Assembly: GCA_964203715.1 (NCBI GenBank)
Contig: CAXNNI010000001.1
Span: 1-26,143 of the forward strand
Source of the DNA: Gammaproteobacteria bacterium
Lineage (GTDB): Bacteria > Pseudomonadota > Gammaproteobacteria > Poriferisulfidales > GCA-002705445
Length of the DNA stretch: 26,143 nucleotides
Direction: 5' to 3'
In this document: positions 16,295 to 26,143 of the stretch, piece by piece
Layout of the letters: every line of letters starts with the position of its first letter
How positions within the stretch are numbered: position 1 is the stretch's first letter
Notes under the pieces: model-generated
The model's input: only the letters and a program-made list of their open reading frames with translations
The model's database searches: none
Told to the model about the DNA's origin: nothing
Translations under genes and position numbers: made by a program

Positions 16295-16924
16295 CTAAAT
16301 AATTTTTTCAAAAGCTCTAATTATATTCTCTATGGATTCTGCTTTTGTTTTCATAGAAGCTTTATTAATTACTAATTGAGCACTTATGTCAAAAATAGAA
16401 TCAACTTCCTTTAAACCATTAGCTTGCAAAGTTTTACCACTGTCTACCAAGTCAACAATAAAGTCAGCTAAACCAAGTATTGGGGCTAATTCCATTGATC
16501 CATAAAGTTTTATTATATCAACTTGTTTCTTTTTTTTAATAAAATAATCTGTTGTACATTTTACATATTTTGTTGCTACTTTTATTCTTAAGCCTGGATT
16601 GCAATTTGGTAAAGACGCTAAGACCATTCTACATTTTGCTATATTAAGATCCAATGGAACATATATATTATTCAAACTATTTTCAAGCAAAGTATCTTTA
16701 CCTACTATTCCAATGTCCGCAGCGCCATTACTTACATATGTTGGCACATCAAAGGCTCTAACTATTACTATTTTTAAATTATCATTATTTGTTTTATAAA
16801 TTAATTTTCTTGAATCACTGATATTTTCAAGTGTTCTTATGCTCATTTTACTGAGAAGATTTGTTGCATCCAATAAAATTCTTCCCTTTGAAATAGCTAT
16901 TACAATATTATCTTCTAAATTCAT
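16295..16924 (-). CDS. hisG: ATP phosphoribosyltransferase, short form (HisZ-dependent)
   Basis: [61 protein letters not shown]. It is 209 aa with no C-terminal regulatory domain. Confidence 0.96.
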
Positions 16925-18177
16925 TTTGGTAATCTCTTTATACTTGCTCCAAGTTTTCCTAATTTTTCTTCAATACACTCATAGCCTCTATCTATATGAT
17001 AAATTCTATCAATAGTTGTCTCACCCTTAGCAGCTAATCCAGCTAATACTAAACTTGCTGAAGCTCTAAGATCAGTTGCCATTACAGGCGCTCCTATTAA
17101 ACTTTTAACTCCTTTGATAACTGCAATATTGCCATGAACTTCAATATTTGCTCCCATTCTTATCAGTTCCTGTACATGCATAAATCTATTTTCAAATACT
17201 GATTCTTCAACCTTACTGTTTCCTTTAGAAACTGAATTTAATGCAACGAATTGAGCTTGCATATCAGTTGGAAAATCTGGGTAAGGCTTAGTAATAATAT
17301 TTATGGGATTTAACTTTGATTTTACATCTATTCGAATAATATCATTTTTAATCTCTATACTAGCGCCTGCTCTTTTTAATTTATCAATAATAATTTTTAT
17401 TGTATCTGGTCTGCAATGTGTCAAAGTGAGATTGCCTCTAGTAATTGCAGCTGCAACTAAGAATGTTGATGCTTCAATTCTATCTGGCAATACTTCATAG
17501 TTACAACCTTTTAATTTTTTTACACCTTCAATTGTTATAACTGAAGATCCGTCTCCACTAATTAATGCCCCCATTAATCTCAAGCAATTTGCCAAATCAA
17601 CTATTTCTGGTTCTTTAGCAGCATTCTTTATAACTGTTTTTCCTACTGCTAATGTTGCAGCCATCATTATATTTTCTGTTCCAGTTACTGAAGTTATAGG
17701 AAAAAATATTTTAGCTCCTTTAAGTTTTTTAGCTTTTGCAAGTATATAACCATCTATGACTTTAATATTAGCACCCATAGCTTTCAAGCCTTCGATATGA
17801 AAATTTACTGGTCTTGATCCAATAGCACAACCACCAGGCAAAGATACTTTTGCTTCTCCATATTTAGCAAGAAGAGGTCCAAGAACGAGAATAGAAGCTC
17901 GCATTGTTTTTACCATTTCATATGGAGCATAACACTTGTTAATAAAAGAAGTATTTACACTTACCTTCATTTTCTCATCAACAGATAAACTAGCTCCCAT
18001 TTCGCTTAGAAGAGAAATAGTTGTAGTCACATCCTGTAAATGAGGAACATTACTGATAATTACTTCTTCTTTTGTTAATATACTTGCAGATAAGATGGGT
18101 AAAACAGAATTTTTTGCCCCAGATATTCGAACAATACCAGTTAAAGGAACACCTCCATTTATCAATAATTTTTCCAT
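16921..18177 (-). CDS. murA: UDP-N-acetylglucosamine 1-carboxyvinyltransferase
   Basis: [29 protein letters not shown] (active-site Cys), [29 protein letters not shown] and HIDRGYE. Confidence 0.99.
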
Positions 18178-18180
18178 TAT

Positions 18181-18816
18181 TTATTTAGACTGAATCTCTA
18201 GATTTTTTAAAGATTCAGTTTCTAATCTTTTTACTACAGACTCAATACCTTTTTCATCAATCTCTGGCATTAAAGTATTGCGCAAACTTTTAACTAATCT
18301 TACGCCATCTGCCGCTACTTCAATAATTTTCCACTGATCTGAAGTATATTTCATGATATATTGAACTTGATATGGTGGCTTGCCCTTATCCATGAAAAGC
18401 TCGGTAGTCACTACGTGATATTGATTTACTTCTTCAGAGCGAATTATTTTAATTTTTACTTTTGAATAATCTAAAATTGATTTTGAATATATTTTTATTA
18501 ATTGATTTTTTAATACTACTTTAAATCTATATTTTAAATCATCTGACGTCTCTTCATATTTTTTATTTCCAATTATCAATTTTAAAATACTATCAAAATC
18601 AATTAATGGAGATAAAGTTTTATCAACTTTTTTATAGAAACCATCAAGATTTTTTTGATAGAGCTGTTTATTTATTTCGATATCAGAAAATAATTCGTTT
18701 GCTTTTACTAAAATTATATTCTCAGGCTTTTCTTTATTCGCAAAAGAATCTTTACTACATAAAAACATTAATGGTAAAACTATTACTAATAAACTAAATG
18801 TATTAAATTTTTTCAT
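18181..18816 (-). CDS. mlaC: MlaC/Ttg2D-family periplasmic lipid-binding protein
   Basis: Signal peptide, SPLIDFDSI, RF…L…Y, WKIIEVAADGVRLVKSLR and GIESVVKRL. It lies upstream of murA as in the ttg2/mla locus. Confidence 0.85.
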   Translation of the reverse strand: MKKFNTFSLLVIVLPLMFLCSKDSFANKEKPENIILVKANELFSDIEINKQLYQKNLDGFYKKVDKTLSPLIDFDSILKLIIGNKKYEETSDDLKYRFKVVLKNQLIKIYSKSILDYSKVKIKIIRSEEVNQYHVVTTELFMDKGKPPYQVQYIMKYTSDQWKIIEVAADGVRLVKSLRNTLMPEIDEKGIESVVKRLETESLKNLEIQSK

Positions 18817-18857
18817 AAACTATAAATTCCGAAAATTACAATATTTATTAAAAACAC

Positions 18858-21359
18858 TTATGTATTGCCCCCTAAAGGTTTAAATTTTAATATTAACGCA
18901 GGTAATAAAGTTAATGAAGCAACAAGTGCAGCTAGCATTGCTAATCCTGTTAATAGTCCAAAATAAATTGTTGGTATAAAATTTGATAACCCCAAAATTG
19001 AAAAACCTAAAATAACTATTAATGATGTATAATACATGGCTTTGCCGATACTTTCATGACTTATTCGAACAGATTCTAAATAATTTTTATTTATCGCAAA
19101 CTCTCTTTTAAATCTGGTAATGTAATGAATTGTATTATCTACTGCAATTCCAACGCTTATAGCAGCTATCGTTATCGTCATTAAATCTAAAGGTATAGAC
19201 TTAAATCCCATAAAACCCAAAACTAAAATTACTGGAAGAATATTTGGAATAATTGCTATGACAGCCAAAGAAAAGGACCTAAATAAGATAATAAACATGA
19301 ACATTATTGATATAAATACAAATCCAATAGTCTGAATTTGCGATGCATATAGGCTTTGAAGCATATTATTATATAAAACAAGCATATTAGTAGTATAAAA
19401 CCTTTCTTTTGGATACTTCATTTCATTAGATAAAAAATTTTCAACTCTTTGAATAAACTCTTTTCTATTTAATTTTTTATTGGAATCTATAACTCTTAAA
19501 GTTAACCTTGTTTGACTTTCATCATCAGATAAATATGGATGTAATAAAATTTTCTTTACTTCTTCTGATAAAGAACTTTTAATTGCTCCAACTTGTATAT
19601 CTGACAAAGGTTGATTATTATTTAATCCAATTGCAAGTTTATACAAAGTTGCTAATGATAAAACTTTTCCAACCTCTGGTTGAGCTTCTAAAAATTCATG
19701 AATTTTTACTATTTCTTTAAGCTTAGATTTATTGAGCCAATATCCTTTAAAATCTTCTTCAGTTTCACCAAATAATAGTGATAAATCTTCAAACTCAGAA
19801 TTATCACCATTTTTGTCTATTATTTTTTCAAACTTTTCAGCTTGCTTATTAATCACAATATCAAAAGGCGTTGTTCCACCAAGTTTCTTGTCAATTTCTA
19901 GCATACCTTGGTGAATTTCTGTATTAGCTTTAAAGTAATCAATAAATCTATTTTCAACTGTAATTTTTGAGATACCATACATACTAAAAAGAAAAATCAC
20001 AAAACAACTCACAATAATCTTTGAATAATGTTTTATTGAAAATTCAGCAAATTTTTTTGTAATTTTTTTTGTTAAATCACTTTTTTTTATAATAATATCA
20101 TTTGACAGTACCATTAAAATTGTTGGAAAAAGTATAAAAGTTATAATAAATGCAACGAGAATTCCAACTATTATCATATTACCAAAGTCTATAACAGGCC
20201 TGATACAGCTGACTACTAGTGAAGCAAAACCAACAAGTGTAGTTAATGTAGTATACACGCAAGGAACAAACATGTAATGAACGACTTCCTTTATAACATT
20301 TTTTTTATCCCTATCTATATTTTCTGCATGTAATTCCCTATACCGAACTGCTAAATGAATAGTCATAGACATAGTTATTATTAGAAGCAGTGCAGCATAA
20401 TTAGACGAAATAACTGTAACTCTCCAGTCTAAAAAACCAAATAATCCAGTAACAAAAATAACCGATATAATGCAAATAAATAGTGGAATAAAAACCCATC
20501 TAATACTTTTAAAAATTATAAATAAAATTAAAATTAAAAAAATAAAAACTCCAATTCCAAATTTTAAAACATCTTGTTCAATAAAATCCGTCATATCAGA
20601 CGTAATCATAGGAACTCCGCCTAAAAACATAGAAGCACTTTTTTTATACTTACTTATAACTTCTCTAATATTTTTTATAATTTTTTTTTCTTTAGTAGCG
20701 TGTTCCGTACTATAATTTTTAAAATCTACTTCTAACTTTTTTAAAGAAATTATTTCTTGCTTAGTTAAATCTCTAGAAAGAGAAATTTCTCTTAAACTAT
20801 TTCTTTGATTTAGTAATTCAAAAAACTTTTTATCTTTTAAAAAATTTATAATGATGATTGTTGTAGTCGAATCTTTACTCATTAAAAGATCTTTATAAAG
20901 AGGACTTGTTAGAAATTCTTTTTTCACTAAATCATAATCAATATTATCGGACCTTAATGTTCTTGGCTTGCTAGAAAGTTCAGAAAGACTAACTTTTGGA
21001 CTATTTAATAATGGCACGTCTAAAATAGATAAAACACTGCTTATGCCGGGAATATTATCTTTTAAATCCTTAGAAAGGACATCTATTAAATTTAGTGTTT
21101 TTTGATTATATATACCATCTTTTGGCTTAAATGTTATAACCACAAAATCTTCTGCGCCATATCTAGCGCTTGTAGCTCTATGATGTTTAAGTGCAAGATC
21201 GTTCTCTAATACTAAAGAATCAGCAGAAGCATCCATTTTGAAATTTTTGATGCCTATAGAAAACAATATTGTAATAAATAATAATGCAATAATTGATAGA
21301 TATGGTTTTTCAATAATTAAAAAATCATAATACTTTATTATTGCTGAAGTTATTTTCAT
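18858..21359 (-). CDS. MMPL/RND-superfamily transporter (HpnN/YdfJ-like), 833 aa
   Basis: Two repeats of 1 TM + periplasmic domain + 5 TM. Motifs include LGGVPMITSDM, TTLVGFASL, GGTTPFDIV, V.SLAT, GIAVDNTIHY..RF and ILGFSIL..SNF.PT. Confidence 0.9.
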   Translation of the reverse strand: MKITSAIIKYYDFLIIEKPYLSIIALLFITILFSIGIKNFKMDASADSLVLENDLALKHHRATSARYGAEDFVVITFKPKDGIYNQKTLNLIDVLSKDLKDNIPGISSVLSILDVPLLNSPKVSLSELSSKPRTLRSDNIDYDLVKKEFLTSPLYKDLLMSKDSTTTIIIINFLKDKKFFELLNQRNSLREISLSRDLTKQEIISLKKLEVDFKNYSTEHATKEKKIIKNIREVISKYKKSASMFLGGVPMITSDMTDFIEQDVLKFGIGVFIFLILILFIIFKSIRWVFIPLFICIISVIFVTGLFGFLDWRVTVISSNYAALLLIITMSMTIHLAVRYRELHAENIDRDKKNVIKEVVHYMFVPCVYTTLTTLVGFASLVVSCIRPVIDFGNMIIVGILVAFIITFILFPTILMVLSNDIIIKKSDLTKKITKKFAEFSIKHYSKIIVSCFVIFLFSMYGISKITVENRFIDYFKANTEIHQGMLEIDKKLGGTTPFDIVINKQAEKFEKIIDKNGDNSEFEDLSLLFGETEEDFKGYWLNKSKLKEIVKIHEFLEAQPEVGKVLSLATLYKLAIGLNNNQPLSDIQVGAIKSSLSEEVKKILLHPYLSDDESQTRLTLRVIDSNKKLNRKEFIQRVENFLSNEMKYPKERFYTTNMLVLYNNMLQSLYASQIQTIGFVFISIMFMFIILFRSFSLAVIAIIPNILPVILVLGFMGFKSIPLDLMTITIAAISVGIAVDNTIHYITRFKREFAINKNYLESVRISHESIGKAMYYTSLIVILGFSILGLSNFIPTIYFGLLTGLAMLAALVASLTLLPALILKFKPLGGNT

Positions 21360-21406
21360 AGATTTTTTCCTAAACCACTAAAGAAACAAGAATTATACTA
21401 CATACG

Positions 21407-21434
21407 TATTGTTTTTATACATATTGTTTTTATA
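21407..21434. repeat. 13-bp perfect direct repeat TATTGTTTTTATA x2 (15-bp period)
   Basis: Copies at 21407-21419 and 21422-21434, in the divergent MMPL/kdsD intergenic region. Confidence 0.8.
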
Positions 21435-21443
21435 ACAGTAATT

Positions 21444-21478
<35 letters not shown>

Positions 21479-21532
21479 GATATAACTTATAAAATATTAT
21501 ATAATAAGTTAAAATTTTTTATTAAAAAAAAT

Positions 21533-22513
21533 ATGCCAAATTTTCTTCAAAGTGATGTCCTTAATATTGCAATACAAGTAATAACAGCTGAGGTTGCTTC
21601 TATAAATAACCTCAAAAAAAATTTAGATAAAAATCTATATTTTATTTGTAAAGAAATATACAACTGTAAAGGAAAATTAGTAGTTATTGGGGTAGGCAAA
21701 TCAGGTCATATTGGAAATAAAATTTCAGCAACTTTTTCAAGTACCGGCACACCCTCATTTTTTATGCACCCTAGCGAAGCTATGCATGGAGACTTAGGTG
21801 CAATATCAAAAAAAGATTTAATACTTTTACTGTCCTACTCAGGGAGTTCAAATGAAATCATTTCAATATTACCGAGCTTAAAAAAAATTGGCTGTAAAAT
21901 TTTAAGCATATGCGGTAATTCTAAATCACAAATATATGAGCAGTCAGATATTTCTATTAACATTAATGTAAAAAAAGAAGCATGTTTATTAAATCTTGCG
22001 CCAACTTCTAGCACAACTGTTATGTTAATAATTGGAGATATAATTGCAATTATTTTAATGAAAATAAGAAATTTTAGCTCTGAAAATTTTAGCAATAATC
22101 ATCCGGGCGGACGCCTAGGCAAAAACTTAAGTTTAAGAATTAAAGACATAATGAAAAAAGGAAATAAAATTCCAGTAATTAAAAGTGAAAAAAAACTTAA
22201 GGATGCATTAATAGAGATGACAAAGAAAAATTTAGGCTGCGTTATAATTTCAAATCAAAATAATAATCCTATAGGTTTTTTTACTGATGGTGATTTAAGA
22301 AGATCAATATATAAATATTTTGATATCCATAAAACATCTATTAATGAAATTATGACAAAAAGTTTTTTTTCATGCAAAGAAAATGATTTTGCAATAAATA
22401 TCTTAAATGTCATGAGAAAAAATAAAATAAATTCTATGCCCGTTTTAAATACTAAAAATAAAATTATTGGCGTAATAAATATACATTTATTAATAGACTC
22501 TGGAATAAATTAA
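21533..22513 (+). CDS. kdsD: Arabinose-5-phosphate isomerase (KdsD/KpsF/GutQ; SIS + 2 CBS)
   Basis: GVGKSGHIG, STGTPSFFMHPSEAMHGDLG, LAPTSSTT, HPGGRLG and FTDGDLRR. It lies upstream of lptCAB. Confidence 0.95.
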   Translation: MPNFLQSDVLNIAIQVITAEVASINNLKKNLDKNLYFICKEIYNCKGKLVVIGVGKSGHIGNKISATFSSTGTPSFFMHPSEAMHGDLGAISKKDLILLLSYSGSSNEIISILPSLKKIGCKILSICGNSKSQIYEQSDISININVKKEACLLNLAPTSSTTVMLIIGDIIAIILMKIRNFSSENFSNNHPGGRLGKNLSLRIKDIMKKGNKIPVIKSEKKLKDALIEMTKKNLGCVIISNQNNNPIGFFTDGDLRRSIYKYFDIHKTSINEIMTKSFFSCKENDFAINILNVMRKNKINSMPVLNTKNKIIGVINIHLLIDSGIN

Positions 22514-22516
22514 GTT

Positions 22517-23083
22517 ATGAATTATGTGACGAAGAATTTTTATACGATATTTGTGATTGTTATTGGATTTATTTTAATATTATTTATTAATAATAAAGCT
22601 GAAAATGTTTTAGATATAAATAAAATAGATATTAAAACTGTACCTGATAATTTTTTTAATAAGGTAAAGTATGTTGCAATGGACTTTAAAGGGAACTTTT
22701 TATACAAAATTACTAGTCCTACAATGAAACAATTTTATGAAAGTGAAATTATAGAAACTGAAAAACCCAATATTTTACTATTCCGAAAAGATATGCCCCC
22801 TATAAAAGTCACATCTAATTTCGCATCAATAGAATACAAGAAGCATAATATTAAATTAAGTGGAGATGTAAAAATGTACTTTCAAAAAAAACTTAGTGAG
22901 CCATCTTTATTGTTAAATACAGATAATATATATATACGTCTTGATCAGCAATTAGCAGAAACTGACTCGATTGTTCATATAAATAAAGGAGACTCATACC
23001 TAAATGGAAAAGGAATGAAATGTAACCTGACTCTTGGTGAGTTTACAATTTTTAAAGATACTAGAGGTAAATATGTTCAATAA
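22517..23083 (+). CDS. lptC: LPS export protein LptC
   Basis: N-terminal TM followed by a beta-jellyroll-like region (IKLSGDV, LNTDNIYI, AETDSIVHI, GKGMKCNL). Position before lptA-lptB. Confidence 0.85.
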   Translation: MNYVTKNFYTIFVIVIGFILILFINNKAENVLDINKIDIKTVPDNFFNKVKYVAMDFKGNFLYKITSPTMKQFYESEIIETEKPNILLFRKDMPPIKVTSNFASIEYKKHNIKLSGDVKMYFQKKLSEPSLLLNTDNIYIRLDQQLAETDSIVHINKGDSYLNGKGMKCNLTLGEFTIFKDTRGKYVQ

Positions 23084-23567
23084 AAATTATTTTTTATTAT
23101 TTTTTATAATTACTATAAGCTCCATAACATTTTCATATGATAATGATAAAGATAAACCAATTTTTTTAGAATCAAATTCTGCAAAATGGGATGAAACTTC
23201 TCAAAAAAGCACATACGTCGGCAATGTCACAGTAACGCAAGGCAGTATTCTTATGAAAGGGAACTTATTAATTGTAACCTCAAAAAATAATAAAATAGAT
23301 GAAATGCTAATTTCAGGAGACAAATCTACCTATACGCAAACGACTAGAACTGGAAAAATAGTTTACGGAGAAGCAAAAAAAATACAATATGACATTGAAA
23401 AGTCTACAATAACTTTTCTAGATGAAGCTGAATTAGTACAATCAAATAATACTATAAAAAGTAATAAAATAATTTATAAAACTGATAAAGAAAATATCAT
23501 AGCTGGCGATAACGATGGTAAATCGAGAGTTAAAATGATACTTGAACCAAAAAAAAATAATGAATAA
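23073..23567 (+). CDS. lptA: Periplasmic LPS transport protein LptA
   Basis: The start is moved to ATG 23073, with GAGG upstream. Signal peptide, DKDKPIFLES, YVGNVTVTQG, GEAKKIQY, AELVQ..N and RVKMILEP. Confidence 0.92.
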   Translation: MFNKNYFLLFFIITISSITFSYDNDKDKPIFLESNSAKWDETSQKSTYVGNVTVTQGSILMKGNLLIVTSKNNKIDEMLISGDKSTYTQTTRTGKIVYGEAKKIQYDIEKSTITFLDEAELVQSNNTIKSNKIIYKTDKENIIAGDNDGKSRVKMILEPKKNNE

Positions 23568-24285
23568 GTTAAATATTAATAAAATATCAAAAAATTATAG
23601 TGGTACAGAAATTGTTTCTAATGTATCTATAGAAATAAATACTGGAGAAATTGTTGGGTTACTTGGCCCAAATGGAGCTGGGAAAACTACGTGCTTTTAT
23701 ATAATAACAGGGCTAATAAAACCAGAATCTGGAGAAATTTATGTAAATGAAAAAAACATAACTGATTTTACAATTGATGAACGTGCAAATTTAGGTATTG
23801 GCTACCTTGCTCAAGAACCCTCTATATTTCGCGGATTAAGTGTAAAAGATAATATTTTTTCTATCTTAGAATTAAGAAATGATATGAATTTGCAAGAAAA
23901 AAAAGATAAATTAAATGACTTGTTAAAAAAATTTAATATTGAGCATTTACAGAATAGTTTGGGTGTAAGCTTATCAGGAGGAGAAAGAAGAAGAGCGGAA
24001 ATTGCACGTGCACTTGCCTCTAATCCAAAATTTATATTATTAGACGAGCCATTTTCTGGAATAGACCCCATTTCAGTTATAGATATCCAAGAAATCATTA
24101 AAGAATTAAAAAAAAATAATATTGGAATACTCATCACTGATCACAATGTTAGAGAAACACTAAAAATTTGCGACAGATCCTATATATTAAGTAATAGTAA
24201 AATAATAGCTGAAGGAAAATCTATTGATATTTTAAAAAACAAAAAAGTTCAAGAAGTCTATTTAGGAGAAAATTTTAAAATTTAA
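23560..24285 (+). CDS. lptB: LPS export ABC ATPase LptB
   Basis: GLLGPNGAGKTT, GIGYLAQEPSIFRGLSV, LSGGERRRAEIARALA, LLDEPFSGIDPISV, ITDHNVRETL and YLGENF. The start is set at ATG 23560. Confidence 0.98.
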   Translation: MNKLNINKISKNYSGTEIVSNVSIEINTGEIVGLLGPNGAGKTTCFYIITGLIKPESGEIYVNEKNITDFTIDERANLGIGYLAQEPSIFRGLSVKDNIFSILELRNDMNLQEKKDKLNDLLKKFNIEHLQNSLGVSLSGGERRRAEIARALASNPKFILLDEPFSGIDPISVIDIQEIIKELKKNNIGILITDHNVRETLKICDRSYILSNSKIIAEGKSIDILKNKKVQEVYLGENFKI

Positions 24286-24307
24286 AAATTTAAAAAATAA
24301 TAAAAAA

Positions 24308-25666
24308 ATGAAACTTAATTTATCTTTAAAACAATTACCTAAGCAAGTAATGACACTTCAATTACAAGCTGCAATAAGACTTCTGCAATTATCAGCTACT
24401 GATCTTAATCAAGAAATACAAAATATCTTTGAAACTAATCCTTTGATAGAAAAAGAAGAACCCTGCGAAGAATATGAAGATGATAATTGTCATTCTCACT
24501 ACGCACATTATAAAGGAAGTTATTTATCAGAAAATAAAAACGTTAACTCAACCTCTGAAATAATAGAAAGAACCACATCTGAAGAAGATAATTTAAAAAA
24601 ATATTTACTTTGGCAACTACATCTTTTAAATATATCTTCAAAAGATATGTCCATAGCAGAAACAATAATAGATTATGTTAATAATGATGGTTATTTAATT
24701 ATAAAGACTTTTGAATTATTTGACGAGATTTACAAGAATTCAGATATTACAATTGATGAATTTATTGCTGTAAAACATTTGCTTCAAAATTTTGATCCTG
24801 TTGGAACATGTGTTGATGGTATTCAAGAATCTCTGCTAGTACAAATAAAAAATAGTTACGAAAATAATGATATAAAAAGTAAAGCTTTAAGAATGATAAA
24901 TGAATATTTTCAGGAATATACTCAAAAGGACTTTCATACCATTGAAAAAAACTTAAAGTTAAATAAAAATGAAATTTTATTAATAGATCAACTTATAAAA
25001 AAACAAAAGCCAAGACCAGGCAGTTGTTTCTTAGAAAAAAAAAATTATACTTACATAATACCAGATGTACTAATTTCTAAAAAAAATGATAATTGGGTAA
25101 TAAAGTCAAATAAATTAATTTCCCCAGATATAAGAATAAACGAAAAATACACTAATATAAAAAAAAATATAACTATTAATGAAAAAGAATATATTAAAAA
25201 AAATTTACAAGAAGCAAAATTTTTTATAAAAAATATTAAATATAGAAATGATACTTTATTGATGCTGTCTGAATCTATTTTTAAAAAACAAATAAGTTTT
25301 TTTGAAAATGGTGTAGATTATTTATTACCAATGAATCTTAAAGAAATCGCAGCTGACTTGAAGTTAAATGAATCTACTATCTCTAGACTCACAACAAACA
25401 AATATGTTGAAACTCCACACGGAGTTCTTGAATTAAAATTCTTTTTTTCAAGCCATATTAAGAATCAAGAAGGTAATAATATTTCATCAAAATCAATTAA
25501 GCATAAAATAAAAAATATTATTTCTTCGGAAAATAAATCAAAACCTTATAATGACAGTCAAATAGTAAATATGCTTGCTAAAGAAAATATTCTTATTGCA
25601 AGAAGAACTGTTGCTAAATATAGAACGTCTCTAGGCTTTAATTCTTCGTCAAAAAGAAAAAACTAA
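24308..25666 (+). CDS. rpoN: RNA polymerase sigma-54 factor
   Basis: Region I LQLQAAIRLLQLS..DL, NPLIE, QNFDPVG, PMNLKEIA..L.LNESTISR, ELKFFFS and the RpoN box ARRTVAKYR. Confidence 0.98.
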   Translation: MKLNLSLKQLPKQVMTLQLQAAIRLLQLSATDLNQEIQNIFETNPLIEKEEPCEEYEDDNCHSHYAHYKGSYLSENKNVNSTSEIIERTTSEEDNLKKYLLWQLHLLNISSKDMSIAETIIDYVNNDGYLIIKTFELFDEIYKNSDITIDEFIAVKHLLQNFDPVGTCVDGIQESLLVQIKNSYENNDIKSKALRMINEYFQEYTQKDFHTIEKNLKLNKNEILLIDQLIKKQKPRPGSCFLEKKNYTYIIPDVLISKKNDNWVIKSNKLISPDIRINEKYTNIKKNITINEKEYIKKNLQEAKFFIKNIKYRNDTLLMLSESIFKKQISFFENGVDYLLPMNLKEIAADLKLNESTISRLTTNKYVETPHGVLELKFFFSSHIKNQEGNNISSKSIKHKIKNIISSENKSKPYNDSQIVNMLAKENILIARRTVAKYRTSLGFNSSSKRKN

Positions 25667-25732: not shown

Positions 25733-26143
25733 ATGTCAACAAAAAATCAAATTAATAAACTTAATACAATTACTGAATTTCTAAATTCTGGGACTATGCT
25801 GGCTGCAAAAATGATTCTAAATGGTCTTCACCCTTCTGAAATTGCTCGTCTATTAGAAAGTTCACCCATAAAGCAAAGAAGATTAATTTGGGAAATGCTA
25901 GATCATGCTAATGATGGTGAAGTTTTATTAGAAGTTGGAGAGGAAGTTAGAAAAAATTTAATGGAACTTATGAACGAAGAATCACTTTTGGCTGCTTCGG
26001 AAACCTTAGATATTGATGATCTTGCTGATCTTCTTGATGAACTGCCTAAAACAGTAGTTCAGCAAGTTTTAAAAGGAATGGATTATCAATACAGGACTAG
26101 ATTAGAAAGCGCTATGAATTATGACGAAGATAGTGCTGGCGGT
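25733..26143 (+). CDS. mgtE: Magnesium transporter MgtE, N-terminal cytosolic part (runs off the window edge)
   Basis: Not in the ORF track. Hand translation MSTKNQINKL…LHPSEIARLLESSP…IWEML…GEVLLEVGEEVR…LDIDDLADLLDELP…NYDEDSAGG matches the MgtE N-domain pattern (HPxxIA, Y.EDSAGG). Confidence 0.92.
   Translation, partial: MSTKNQINKLNTITEFLNSGTMLAAKMILNGLHPSEIARLLESSPIKQRRLIWEMLDHANDGEVLLEVGEEVRKNLMELMNEESLLAASETLDIDDLADLLDELPKTVVQQVLKGMDYQYRTRLESAMNYDEDSAGG

Follow-up and report, generated by a model that had tools for sequence, protein, structure and literature searches.

The Mla system of Escherichia coli and Pseudomonas is composed of the outer-membrane protein MlaA, the soluble periplasmic carrier MlaC and MlaFEDB, an ATP-binding cassette (ABC) engine. 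Partners of another kind have been proposed for MlaC and its relatives in two preprints. In Campylobacter jejuni, where mlaA (Cj1371), mlaC (Cj1372) and a resistance-nodulation-division (RND) gene (Cj1373) form an operon, a proton-driven RND partner for MlaC was hypothesised (bioRxiv 10.64898/2026.08.28.747810), and a transport of hopanoids by HpnN-HpnM-HpnS, which combine an MMPL pump, a carrier resembling MlaC and a lipoprotein resembling MlaA, was proposed by others (bioRxiv 10.1101/2025.07.29.667474). An RND-MlaC partnership is therefore already known as a proposal, as suspected in an earlier note on the DNA described here, which had remarked that the pairing may not be new. This DNA, hereafter the window, is a stretch of 26,143 bp (positions 1 to 26,143 of contig CAXNNI010000001.1, assembly GCA_964203715.1) from a gammaproteobacterium of the order Poriferisulfidales, and it carries an MMPL-family RND transporter gene, hereafter the pump, in the place of MlaFEDB and next to mlaC. 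New here are the order-wide lack of MlaD and MlaE (53 species), the all-or-none pattern of MlaC, MlaA and the pump in MlaE-less Gammaproteobacteria, the retention of a canonical MlaC and the conservation of an acidic residue in transmembrane helix (TM) 10 only of the pump.

The open reading frames of the window were called with their coordinates and assigned to families by Pfam and NCBIfam profile searches against curated cut-offs. The pump gene (18858..21359, minus strand) encodes 833 amino acids matching Pfam MMPL (PF03176, 3e-31; 109 bits for a cut-off of 20.5, in two stretches). It is followed on the same strand, after a spacer of 41 bp (18817..18857), by mlaC (18181..18816), whose product of 211 amino acids is a periplasmic lipid carrier (PF05494, 2.6e-28; 99 bits for a cut-off of 26) with an N-terminal signal peptide (a hydrophobic N-terminus, then ...SFA/N). 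Only 3 bp further starts murA (16921..18177, minus strand, 418 amino acids; TIGR01072, 588 bits), the conserved downstream edge of the mla slot, itself followed by hisG, aroG, hisD and hisC (Pfam hisG, DAHP synthase, histidinol dehydrogenase and aminotransferase). On the other side, a divergent intergenic region of 173 bp (21360..21532) separates the pump from kdsD (21533..22513, plus strand, above its profile cut-off), the first gene of the kdsD-lptC-lptA-lptB-rpoN series (21533..25666, plus strand, all matches above cut-offs), which is the conserved divergent neighbour identifying the slot. In the record of E. coli K-12, murA-ibaG-mlaB-C-D-E-F is divergent from yrbG-kdsD-kdsC-lptCAB-rpoN, and since this layout matches on both the murA side and the kdsD-lpt side, the pump gene is placed exactly in the mlaFED slot, from which mlaB and ibaG are also missing. 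The gene order given in the earlier note was right in every coordinate, and its equation of the slot with the mlaFEDCB-ibaG region of E. coli agrees with the K-12 record.

The locus thus shares with the E. coli and Pseudomonas system the kdsD/murA slot, the fold and family of MlaC and the presence of MlaA, and differs in that the whole ABC engine (MlaF, MlaE, MlaD and MlaB) is missing with an MMPL/RND gene in its place, so that the energy would come from the proton gradient and not from ATP. By gene arrangement it resembles the module of C. jejuni, in which an MmpL-like RND gene similarly adjoins mlaC; in the window the two genes are on the same strand with the 41-bp spacer between them. However, C. 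jejuni still encodes MlaFED elsewhere in its genome and has mlaA within the operon, whereas here MlaFED was found nowhere in the order and mlaA lies outside the operon, on another contig. No terminator-like site was detected in 16800-21700, hence none between the pump gene, mlaC and murA, which is consistent with co-transcription of the pump gene and mlaC. The best minus-strand sigma-70-like hexamer pair (21525-21496, 10/12 match) lies inside the divergent region, but with 26 sites observed for 32 expected, such a match carries no significance in DNA this rich in AT.

The loss of the ABC engine was followed by searching MlaD as PF02470 and MlaE as PF02405, with controls that matched. Neither was found in the genome that carries the window, which encodes MlaA (PF04333, 4.7e-66) on contig C16, between argG and a septation-protein gene. 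Taken alone, this lack of MlaD and MlaE means little because the assembly is only 77% complete. Nevertheless, both were missing from all genomes of the order (MlaD 0/53, MlaE 0/53), which comprises 53 sequenced species, among which 41 are at least 90% complete and many are closed, with sizes of 0.7-3.0 Mb and a GC content of 27% to 75% at the sampled loci. By comparison, MlaD was present in all eight out-of-order genomes of a first sample. Essentially every genome of the order with the locus assembled encodes one MlaC, one MlaA and one full-length pump ortholog, the latter with 44-73% identity. The loss of the ABC module put forward in the earlier note, together with the retention of MlaC and MlaA, holds for this genome and for each of the 53 in the order.

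A few apparent exceptions within the genus were rejected. A loss of pump and MlaC in G001, G004 and G013 reflects incomplete contigs, murA beginning at contig base 25 in G001 and being also unassembled in the two others, and a pump pseudogene in G003 was discarded as an assembly error since murA is frameshifted there too. In this two-contig assembly (G003:C2:564626-569036), murA and the pump gene are both interrupted by frameshifts and stop codons that resemble sequencing errors and not gene decay.

As judged from these genome sequences, the loss of MlaFEDB with its swap for an MMPL pump is ancient and order-wide. The earlier note had considered the in-place swap in a streamlined genome as the notable part; yet it is not a feature of streamlining, since the loss extends to complete high-GC genomes of 2-3 Mb and is met again in 14 or more further families of Gammaproteobacteria. 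Such a distribution is the opposite of the published view of the system, as what counts as the core has disappeared and the supposed additions remain, always in the company of one particular MMPL pump. Indeed, a phylogenomic survey presents MlaEFD as an ancient, near-universal core and MlaA and MlaC (MlaABC) as later additions, and the converse state is not mentioned in the part of this source considered here (PMC10665443). According to the same part, Veillonella harbors a "minimal" system that keeps MlaEFD and lacks MlaA and MlaC, another natural Mla variant without half of the canonical parts and the converse case to this lineage, which keeps MlaA and MlaC and lacks MlaEFD (PMC10665443).

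The association between pump and carrier is also apparent at the level of the class, in a sample of 300 genomes at least 90% complete, of which 297 fall outside the order. A full-length pump ortholog (36-49% identity) was found in 45 of these 297 genomes, and MlaE was missing in 23. The pump was present in 17 of the 23 MlaE-less genomes (74%) against 28 of the 274 MlaE-bearing ones (10%), an odds ratio of 25. (The latter group includes G090, which is flagged as unpublished and supports none of the claims made here.) Within the set of 23 genomes without MlaE, MlaC was retained in 17/17 with the pump and 0/6 without it, and MlaA in 16/17 and 0/6, respectively; collapsed to families, the comparison becomes 14 to 4 with no discordant family. 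MlaE status changed at least four times on the pump tree and family f128 holds both states. This is strong comparative evidence that the carrier would need either MlaFEDB or the pump.

Adjacency of pump and mlaC is also recurrent, as it was observed in families f1, f4, f100, f138 and f163, with G211, G337 and G186 as examples from unrelated families; MlaA, MMPL and MlaC genes are contiguous in G148 and G307, and mlaA is contiguous with the module in G211 as well. Family f138 encodes both engines, and there either pump copy adjoins an MlaC of its own, with a further MlaC beside MlaE. The f138 genomes G337 and G186 encode as many as five and six MlaC paralogs, respectively, with two pump orthologs each, and two to three of these paralogs per genome are located beside neither pump nor MlaE. 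A separate MlaA-MMPL pair was seen in the MlaE-less genome G274 (C2:641473-644504), in which a second, more distant MMPL (32% identity) directly follows a second copy of MlaA.

The AlphaFold2 model of the pump (mean predicted local distance difference test, pLDDT, 84.4; predicted TM-score, pTM, 0.79) exhibits 12 TM helices arranged as two pseudo-repeats, and either repeat carries one periplasmic domain. Its sole disordered segment (pLDDT < 50) is an acidic loop of the second periplasmic domain, residues 509-537 (about 19750-19835, minus strand). In Foldseek searches, the model aligned over its full length with MmpL3, MmpL4, MmpL5 and HpnN with TM-scores of 0.65-0.69; the best solved folds were MmpL5, MmpL4 and MmpL3 (0.66-0.69), then HpnN, and NPC1, NCR1 and Patched were matched too. 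The modelled fold is that of the lipid-transporting RND proteins of the MMPL/HpnN/NPC1 type, and the pump is a candidate proton-driven inner-membrane partner of MlaC. At the sequence level, it is remote from all characterised members. HpnN is the closest solved sequence (E = 6e-9), the best named match is HAE3 (TIGR00921) at 188 bits, yet below the threshold of 352, and the score for BstA is also under the curated cut-off. The mycobacterial MmpL3, MmpL4 and MmpL5, which are proton-driven exporters of lipids or siderophores, have only 11-14% identity to the pump despite being its best structural matches, and they work with other periplasmic partners.

The putative proton relay further separates the pump from these relatives. 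In MmpL3, TM4 and TM10 each carry an Asp-Tyr pair, and HpnN has an essential Asp in TM4 and none in TM10. On the contrary, among the TM4 and TM10 relay positions of the pump only TM10 is acidic, with a single Asp flanked by two invariant histidines. Over 34 pump orthologs, the D741 of TM10 (G-I-A-V-D-N-T-I-H-Y) is conserved in 32/34 and H745 and Y746 in 34/34; in TM4 (I-I-T-M-S-M-T-I-H-L), S331 occupies the position of the TM4 Asp of HpnN and is acidic in 0/34, and H335 is conserved in 34/34. The remark of the earlier note that an Asp is present in TM10 (AVDNTIHY) and lacking in TM4 (TMSMTIHL) was accurate, as D741 and Ser331 confirm, and its idea of an atypical relay was not, since this arrangement is the norm of the orthogroup. 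Because the pattern is conserved across the 34 orthologs, the TM10-only Asp is a family trait and no anomaly of this genome, and it thus looks like a conserved design and not a defect. An invariant periplasmic motif just past TM1 (D43, S45 and D54) may represent a lipid entry or docking site.

The carrier is a canonical one. The nearest solved sequences to the MlaC of the window are Ttg2D (6.7e-16) and E. coli MlaC, and its AlphaFold2 model (pLDDT 90.6) has TM-scores of 0.71-0.75 to Pseudomonas Ttg2D and E. coli MlaC. It reaches 41 bits for the NCBIfam equivalog PRK15117, below the cut-off of 195, and has diverged from enterobacterial MlaC. The adjacency of mlaC and murA is retained in the order and in the outgroups, and mlaC of the window is, by its position next to murA, the positional ortholog of canonical mlaC. 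In the MlaC tree, the carriers of the order are sister to a clade that includes an MlaE-adjacent MlaC (G176) and the only MlaC of G329, its relative without MlaE, and those of f100 are similarly sister to an MlaD-adjacent MlaC. A dedicated "MMPL-type" MlaC clade was considered and rejected, as MMPL-adjacent MlaCs need at least four origins and those of MlaE-less lineages branch beside ABC-linked ones. Since the MMPL-adjacent copies form no single clade, the retained carrier is the canonical MlaC and no special paralog.

The arrangement of the locus varies within the order. In the small, low-GC genomes of families f1 (that of the window) and f4, the order is kdsD<>MMPL-mlaC-murA-hisG-aroG, <> marking divergent genes. 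In f2, the pump ends a rapZ-ptsN-hpf-lptB-lptA-kdsC-kdsD-yrbG<>MMPL arrangement and is followed by a TonB-dependent receptor, and mlaC-murA-hisG-aroG is found elsewhere, behind unrelated genes. In f3, the slot reads yrbG<>mlaC-murA and the pump is located elsewhere, between a CNNM/CorC gene and fdhD. The outgroups exhibit mlaF-E-D-C-murA-hisG. The earlier note had held that a pump unlinked to mlaC in relatives would speak against their partnership; such unlinking does occur in f2 and f3, yet both genes are present in every genome of these two families. No alternative partner gene was seen beside mlaC in f2 or f3, the neighbours being Maf, an SppA-like peptidase and yrbG. The trees of the pump and of MlaC have the same branching (f3,(f2,(f4,f1))) with a monophyletic order and, because they agree, both genes were inherited vertically within it.

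Two scenarios fit these data, either an ancestor with kdsD<>MMPL-mlaC-murA from which f3 moved the pump out, or an ancestor with an emptied slot as in f3 into which the pump entered before the split of f2, f4 and f1. The arrangement of G337, from the unrelated family f138, looks like a possible intermediate, with MMPL-mlaC-ibaG-murA and MlaFED with its own MlaC elsewhere. The displacement of MlaFED in situ put forward in the earlier note is hence plausible from gene order and well in line with kdsD<>MMPL-mlaC-murA in f1 and f4, although unproven, given that mlaC-murA is elsewhere in f2 and the pump elsewhere in f3. The other half of the claim, that a pump took over from the ABC module as partner of MlaC, stands better: with MlaFEDB missing, synteny, sharp co-occurrence and matching pump and MlaC trees would make the pump the obvious replacement partner, even if it is unlinked from mlaC in f2 and f3.

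From gene content, synteny, co-occurrence, folds and residue conservation we infer physical coupling, substrate, proton coupling and direction as follows. Outer-membrane MlaA would exchange phospholipid with soluble periplasmic MlaC, which would dock on the periplasmic domains of the pump, and the pump, powered by the proton gradient, would transfer lipid between MlaC and the inner membrane's outer leaflet, probably via a path formed by Asp741 of TM10 and the invariant His335, His745 and Tyr746. Operating from the outer to the inner membrane, such a shuttle would keep the asymmetry-maintenance job of MlaFEDB, with outward bulk flow given by the retained YhdP. To this reading as a whole, i.e., the pump as the inner-membrane end of an MlaA-MlaC shuttle replacing MlaFEDB and working in the retrograde direction, we give a probability of about 0.4; the coupling of pump and MlaC by itself, whatever the direction, is likely. 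YhdP (1138 amino acids) was found in 4/4 genomes of the genus (95-98% complete) and is the only AsmA-like protein found: TamB (PF04357) had no match in these four genomes (G010, G012, G001 and G009) nor in a closed f3 genome (G018), and AsmA (PF05170) had none in the four. As a rule, nearly all diderm bacteria encode TamB. The hypothesis that the pump and its partners form the only phospholipid route to the outer membrane was nonetheless ruled out by the presence of YhdP in all four.

Several observations weigh against a retrograde shuttle built on the pump. To our knowledge, all characterised bacterial MMPL and HpnN pumps export outward, which favours the anterograde direction. The genome of the window is only 77% complete, pump and mlaC are unlinked in f2 and f3, and the Fisher values overstate the support, as kinship ties the sampled genomes to one another. 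The pump also occurs in about 10% of the genomes with MlaFEDB, and may then have its own job and not be a replacement. G103 and G094 encode both engines and a single MlaC, so one carrier may serve both; this cuts two ways, as it supports coupling and also means that the pump may already have served a purpose of its own when MlaFEDB disappeared. Finally, the predicted complex of MMPL(5-831) with MlaC(30-200), whose score of 0.25 is below the mark of 0.32, counts neither way.

Opposite direction with the same coupling is the most serious competitor: the pump would take phospholipid or lysophospholipid from the inner membrane and load MlaC for delivery to MlaA and the outer membrane, the order having lost retrograde Mla and retained this export route alone. 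Besides the export activity of characterised relatives, this would make it easier to understand why pump and MlaFEDB coexist in 28/274 genomes, sometimes with a single MlaC, as the jobs of the two engines would differ, and the retained MlaCs descend from ABC-associated ones, so that one carrier may serve both. It is also exactly what was proposed for Cj1371-1373 (bioRxiv 10.64898/2026.08.28.747810). On the contrary, the genus keeps YhdP for outward bulk flow, and a lineage bearing lipopolysaccharide would be left without transport-based repair of asymmetry. Moreover, MlaA gives access to outer-leaflet lipid, and its architecture and genetics point to lipid removal from this leaflet. A precedent for inward delivery is the NPC2 to NPC1 pathway, in which a soluble carrier hands lipid to an RND-fold membrane protein for membrane insertion; the fold matches of the pump to NPC1, NCR1 and Patched make this an analogy for the retrograde reading, across a distant relationship and with a sterol as substrate. 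Because YhdP is retained, MlaA takes outer-leaflet lipid and NPC2-NPC1 offers this precedent, we lean slightly toward inward transport and a true functional replacement, and regard outward delivery as somewhat unlikely. A broader version, in which the pump is the sole inner-membrane engine throughout the order and 14 or more gammaproteobacterial families besides, MlaC serves ABC or RND alike and the engine sets the direction (ABC inward, RND outward), with a shuttle reversed or two-way and run on proton power alone, appears to us unlikely.

It is also conceivable that the adjacency is incidental, the pump acting independently of MlaC to export some other amphiphile, such as another lipid, a glycolipid or a hydrophobic metabolite, and MlaC and MlaA using a different inner-membrane acceptor or passive delivery to the membrane. 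The separation of pump and mlaC in f2, f3 and many other genomes and the variable neighbours of the pump there (TonB receptor, CNNM, FdhD) would suit this explanation. However, the all-or-none pattern of MlaE-less genomes (MlaC 17/17 against 0/6, MlaA 16/17 against 0/6) is hard to explain without a functional link, pump and mlaC are neighbours in five or more families, no pump copy of f138 lacks an MlaC of its own, and no other conserved gene accompanies mlaC in f2 and f3; we therefore hold an incidental neighbourhood for improbable. As for a standard hopanoid export pair, it has some appeal since the named NCBIfam matches of the two proteins include HpnN and HpnM, no solved sequence is closer to the pump than HpnN (E = 6e-9) and the structures of HpnN (5khn, 6wu0) share the fold of the pump. 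Nevertheless, the pump is 7- to 14-fold below the cut-offs of the HpnN models (97 bits for 752 with TIGR03480, 77 for 1100 with NF052374) and MlaC 3-fold below that of HpnM (54 bits for 160), the acidic residue is in TM10 and not in TM4 as in HpnN, and the carrier is the sole, canonical murA-linked MlaC. Squalene-hopene cyclase (PF13243), the marker gene of hopanoid synthesis suggested for a check by the earlier note, was absent from this genome and its 16 f1 relatives (0/17), from f3 (0/19) and from f4 (0/1), all of which keep a pump ortholog. The pair is thus not a standard HpnN/HpnM one, and this interpretation is largely refuted, with hardly any probability left. The cyclase was found in 10/16 species of the single f2 genus, whose additional, distant MMPL paralogs could be genuine HpnN. 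In genus g4 (G017, G024, G030, G032, G034 and others), the cyclase domain is located in open frames of 1181-1476 amino acids, about twice the usual length, which points to a fusion protein or to a long frame of read-through, these genomes being rich in GC.

If the retrograde shuttle or its outward counterpart holds, a small marine bacterium and its order would have a natural alternative engine, still a candidate, for lipid traffic between two membranes. The order represents a natural MlaFEDB knockout in which the proposed RND-MlaC route may be studied without a confounding ABC system, and it includes cultured relatives with closed genomes (in f2 and f3) that are open to genetics. Asking how an RND engine handles this carrier also offers a way into the long-running argument on the direction of Mla transport, and the finding bears on the upkeep of the outer-membrane barrier in abundant streamlined marine bacteria.

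Other differences from the layout of E. coli were noticed on the divergent side of the slot. The gap from kdsD to lptC is 3 bp (21533-23083), kdsC and yrbG being missing from the slot, and E. coli KdsC, YrbG, Hpf, PtsN and RapZ had no tblastn match in the 77%-complete genome. Downstream of rpoN, a gene for an MgtE-type magnesium transporter (25733-26143) replaces the usual hpf-ptsN-rapZ, of which hpf-ptsN is retained in families f2 and f3.

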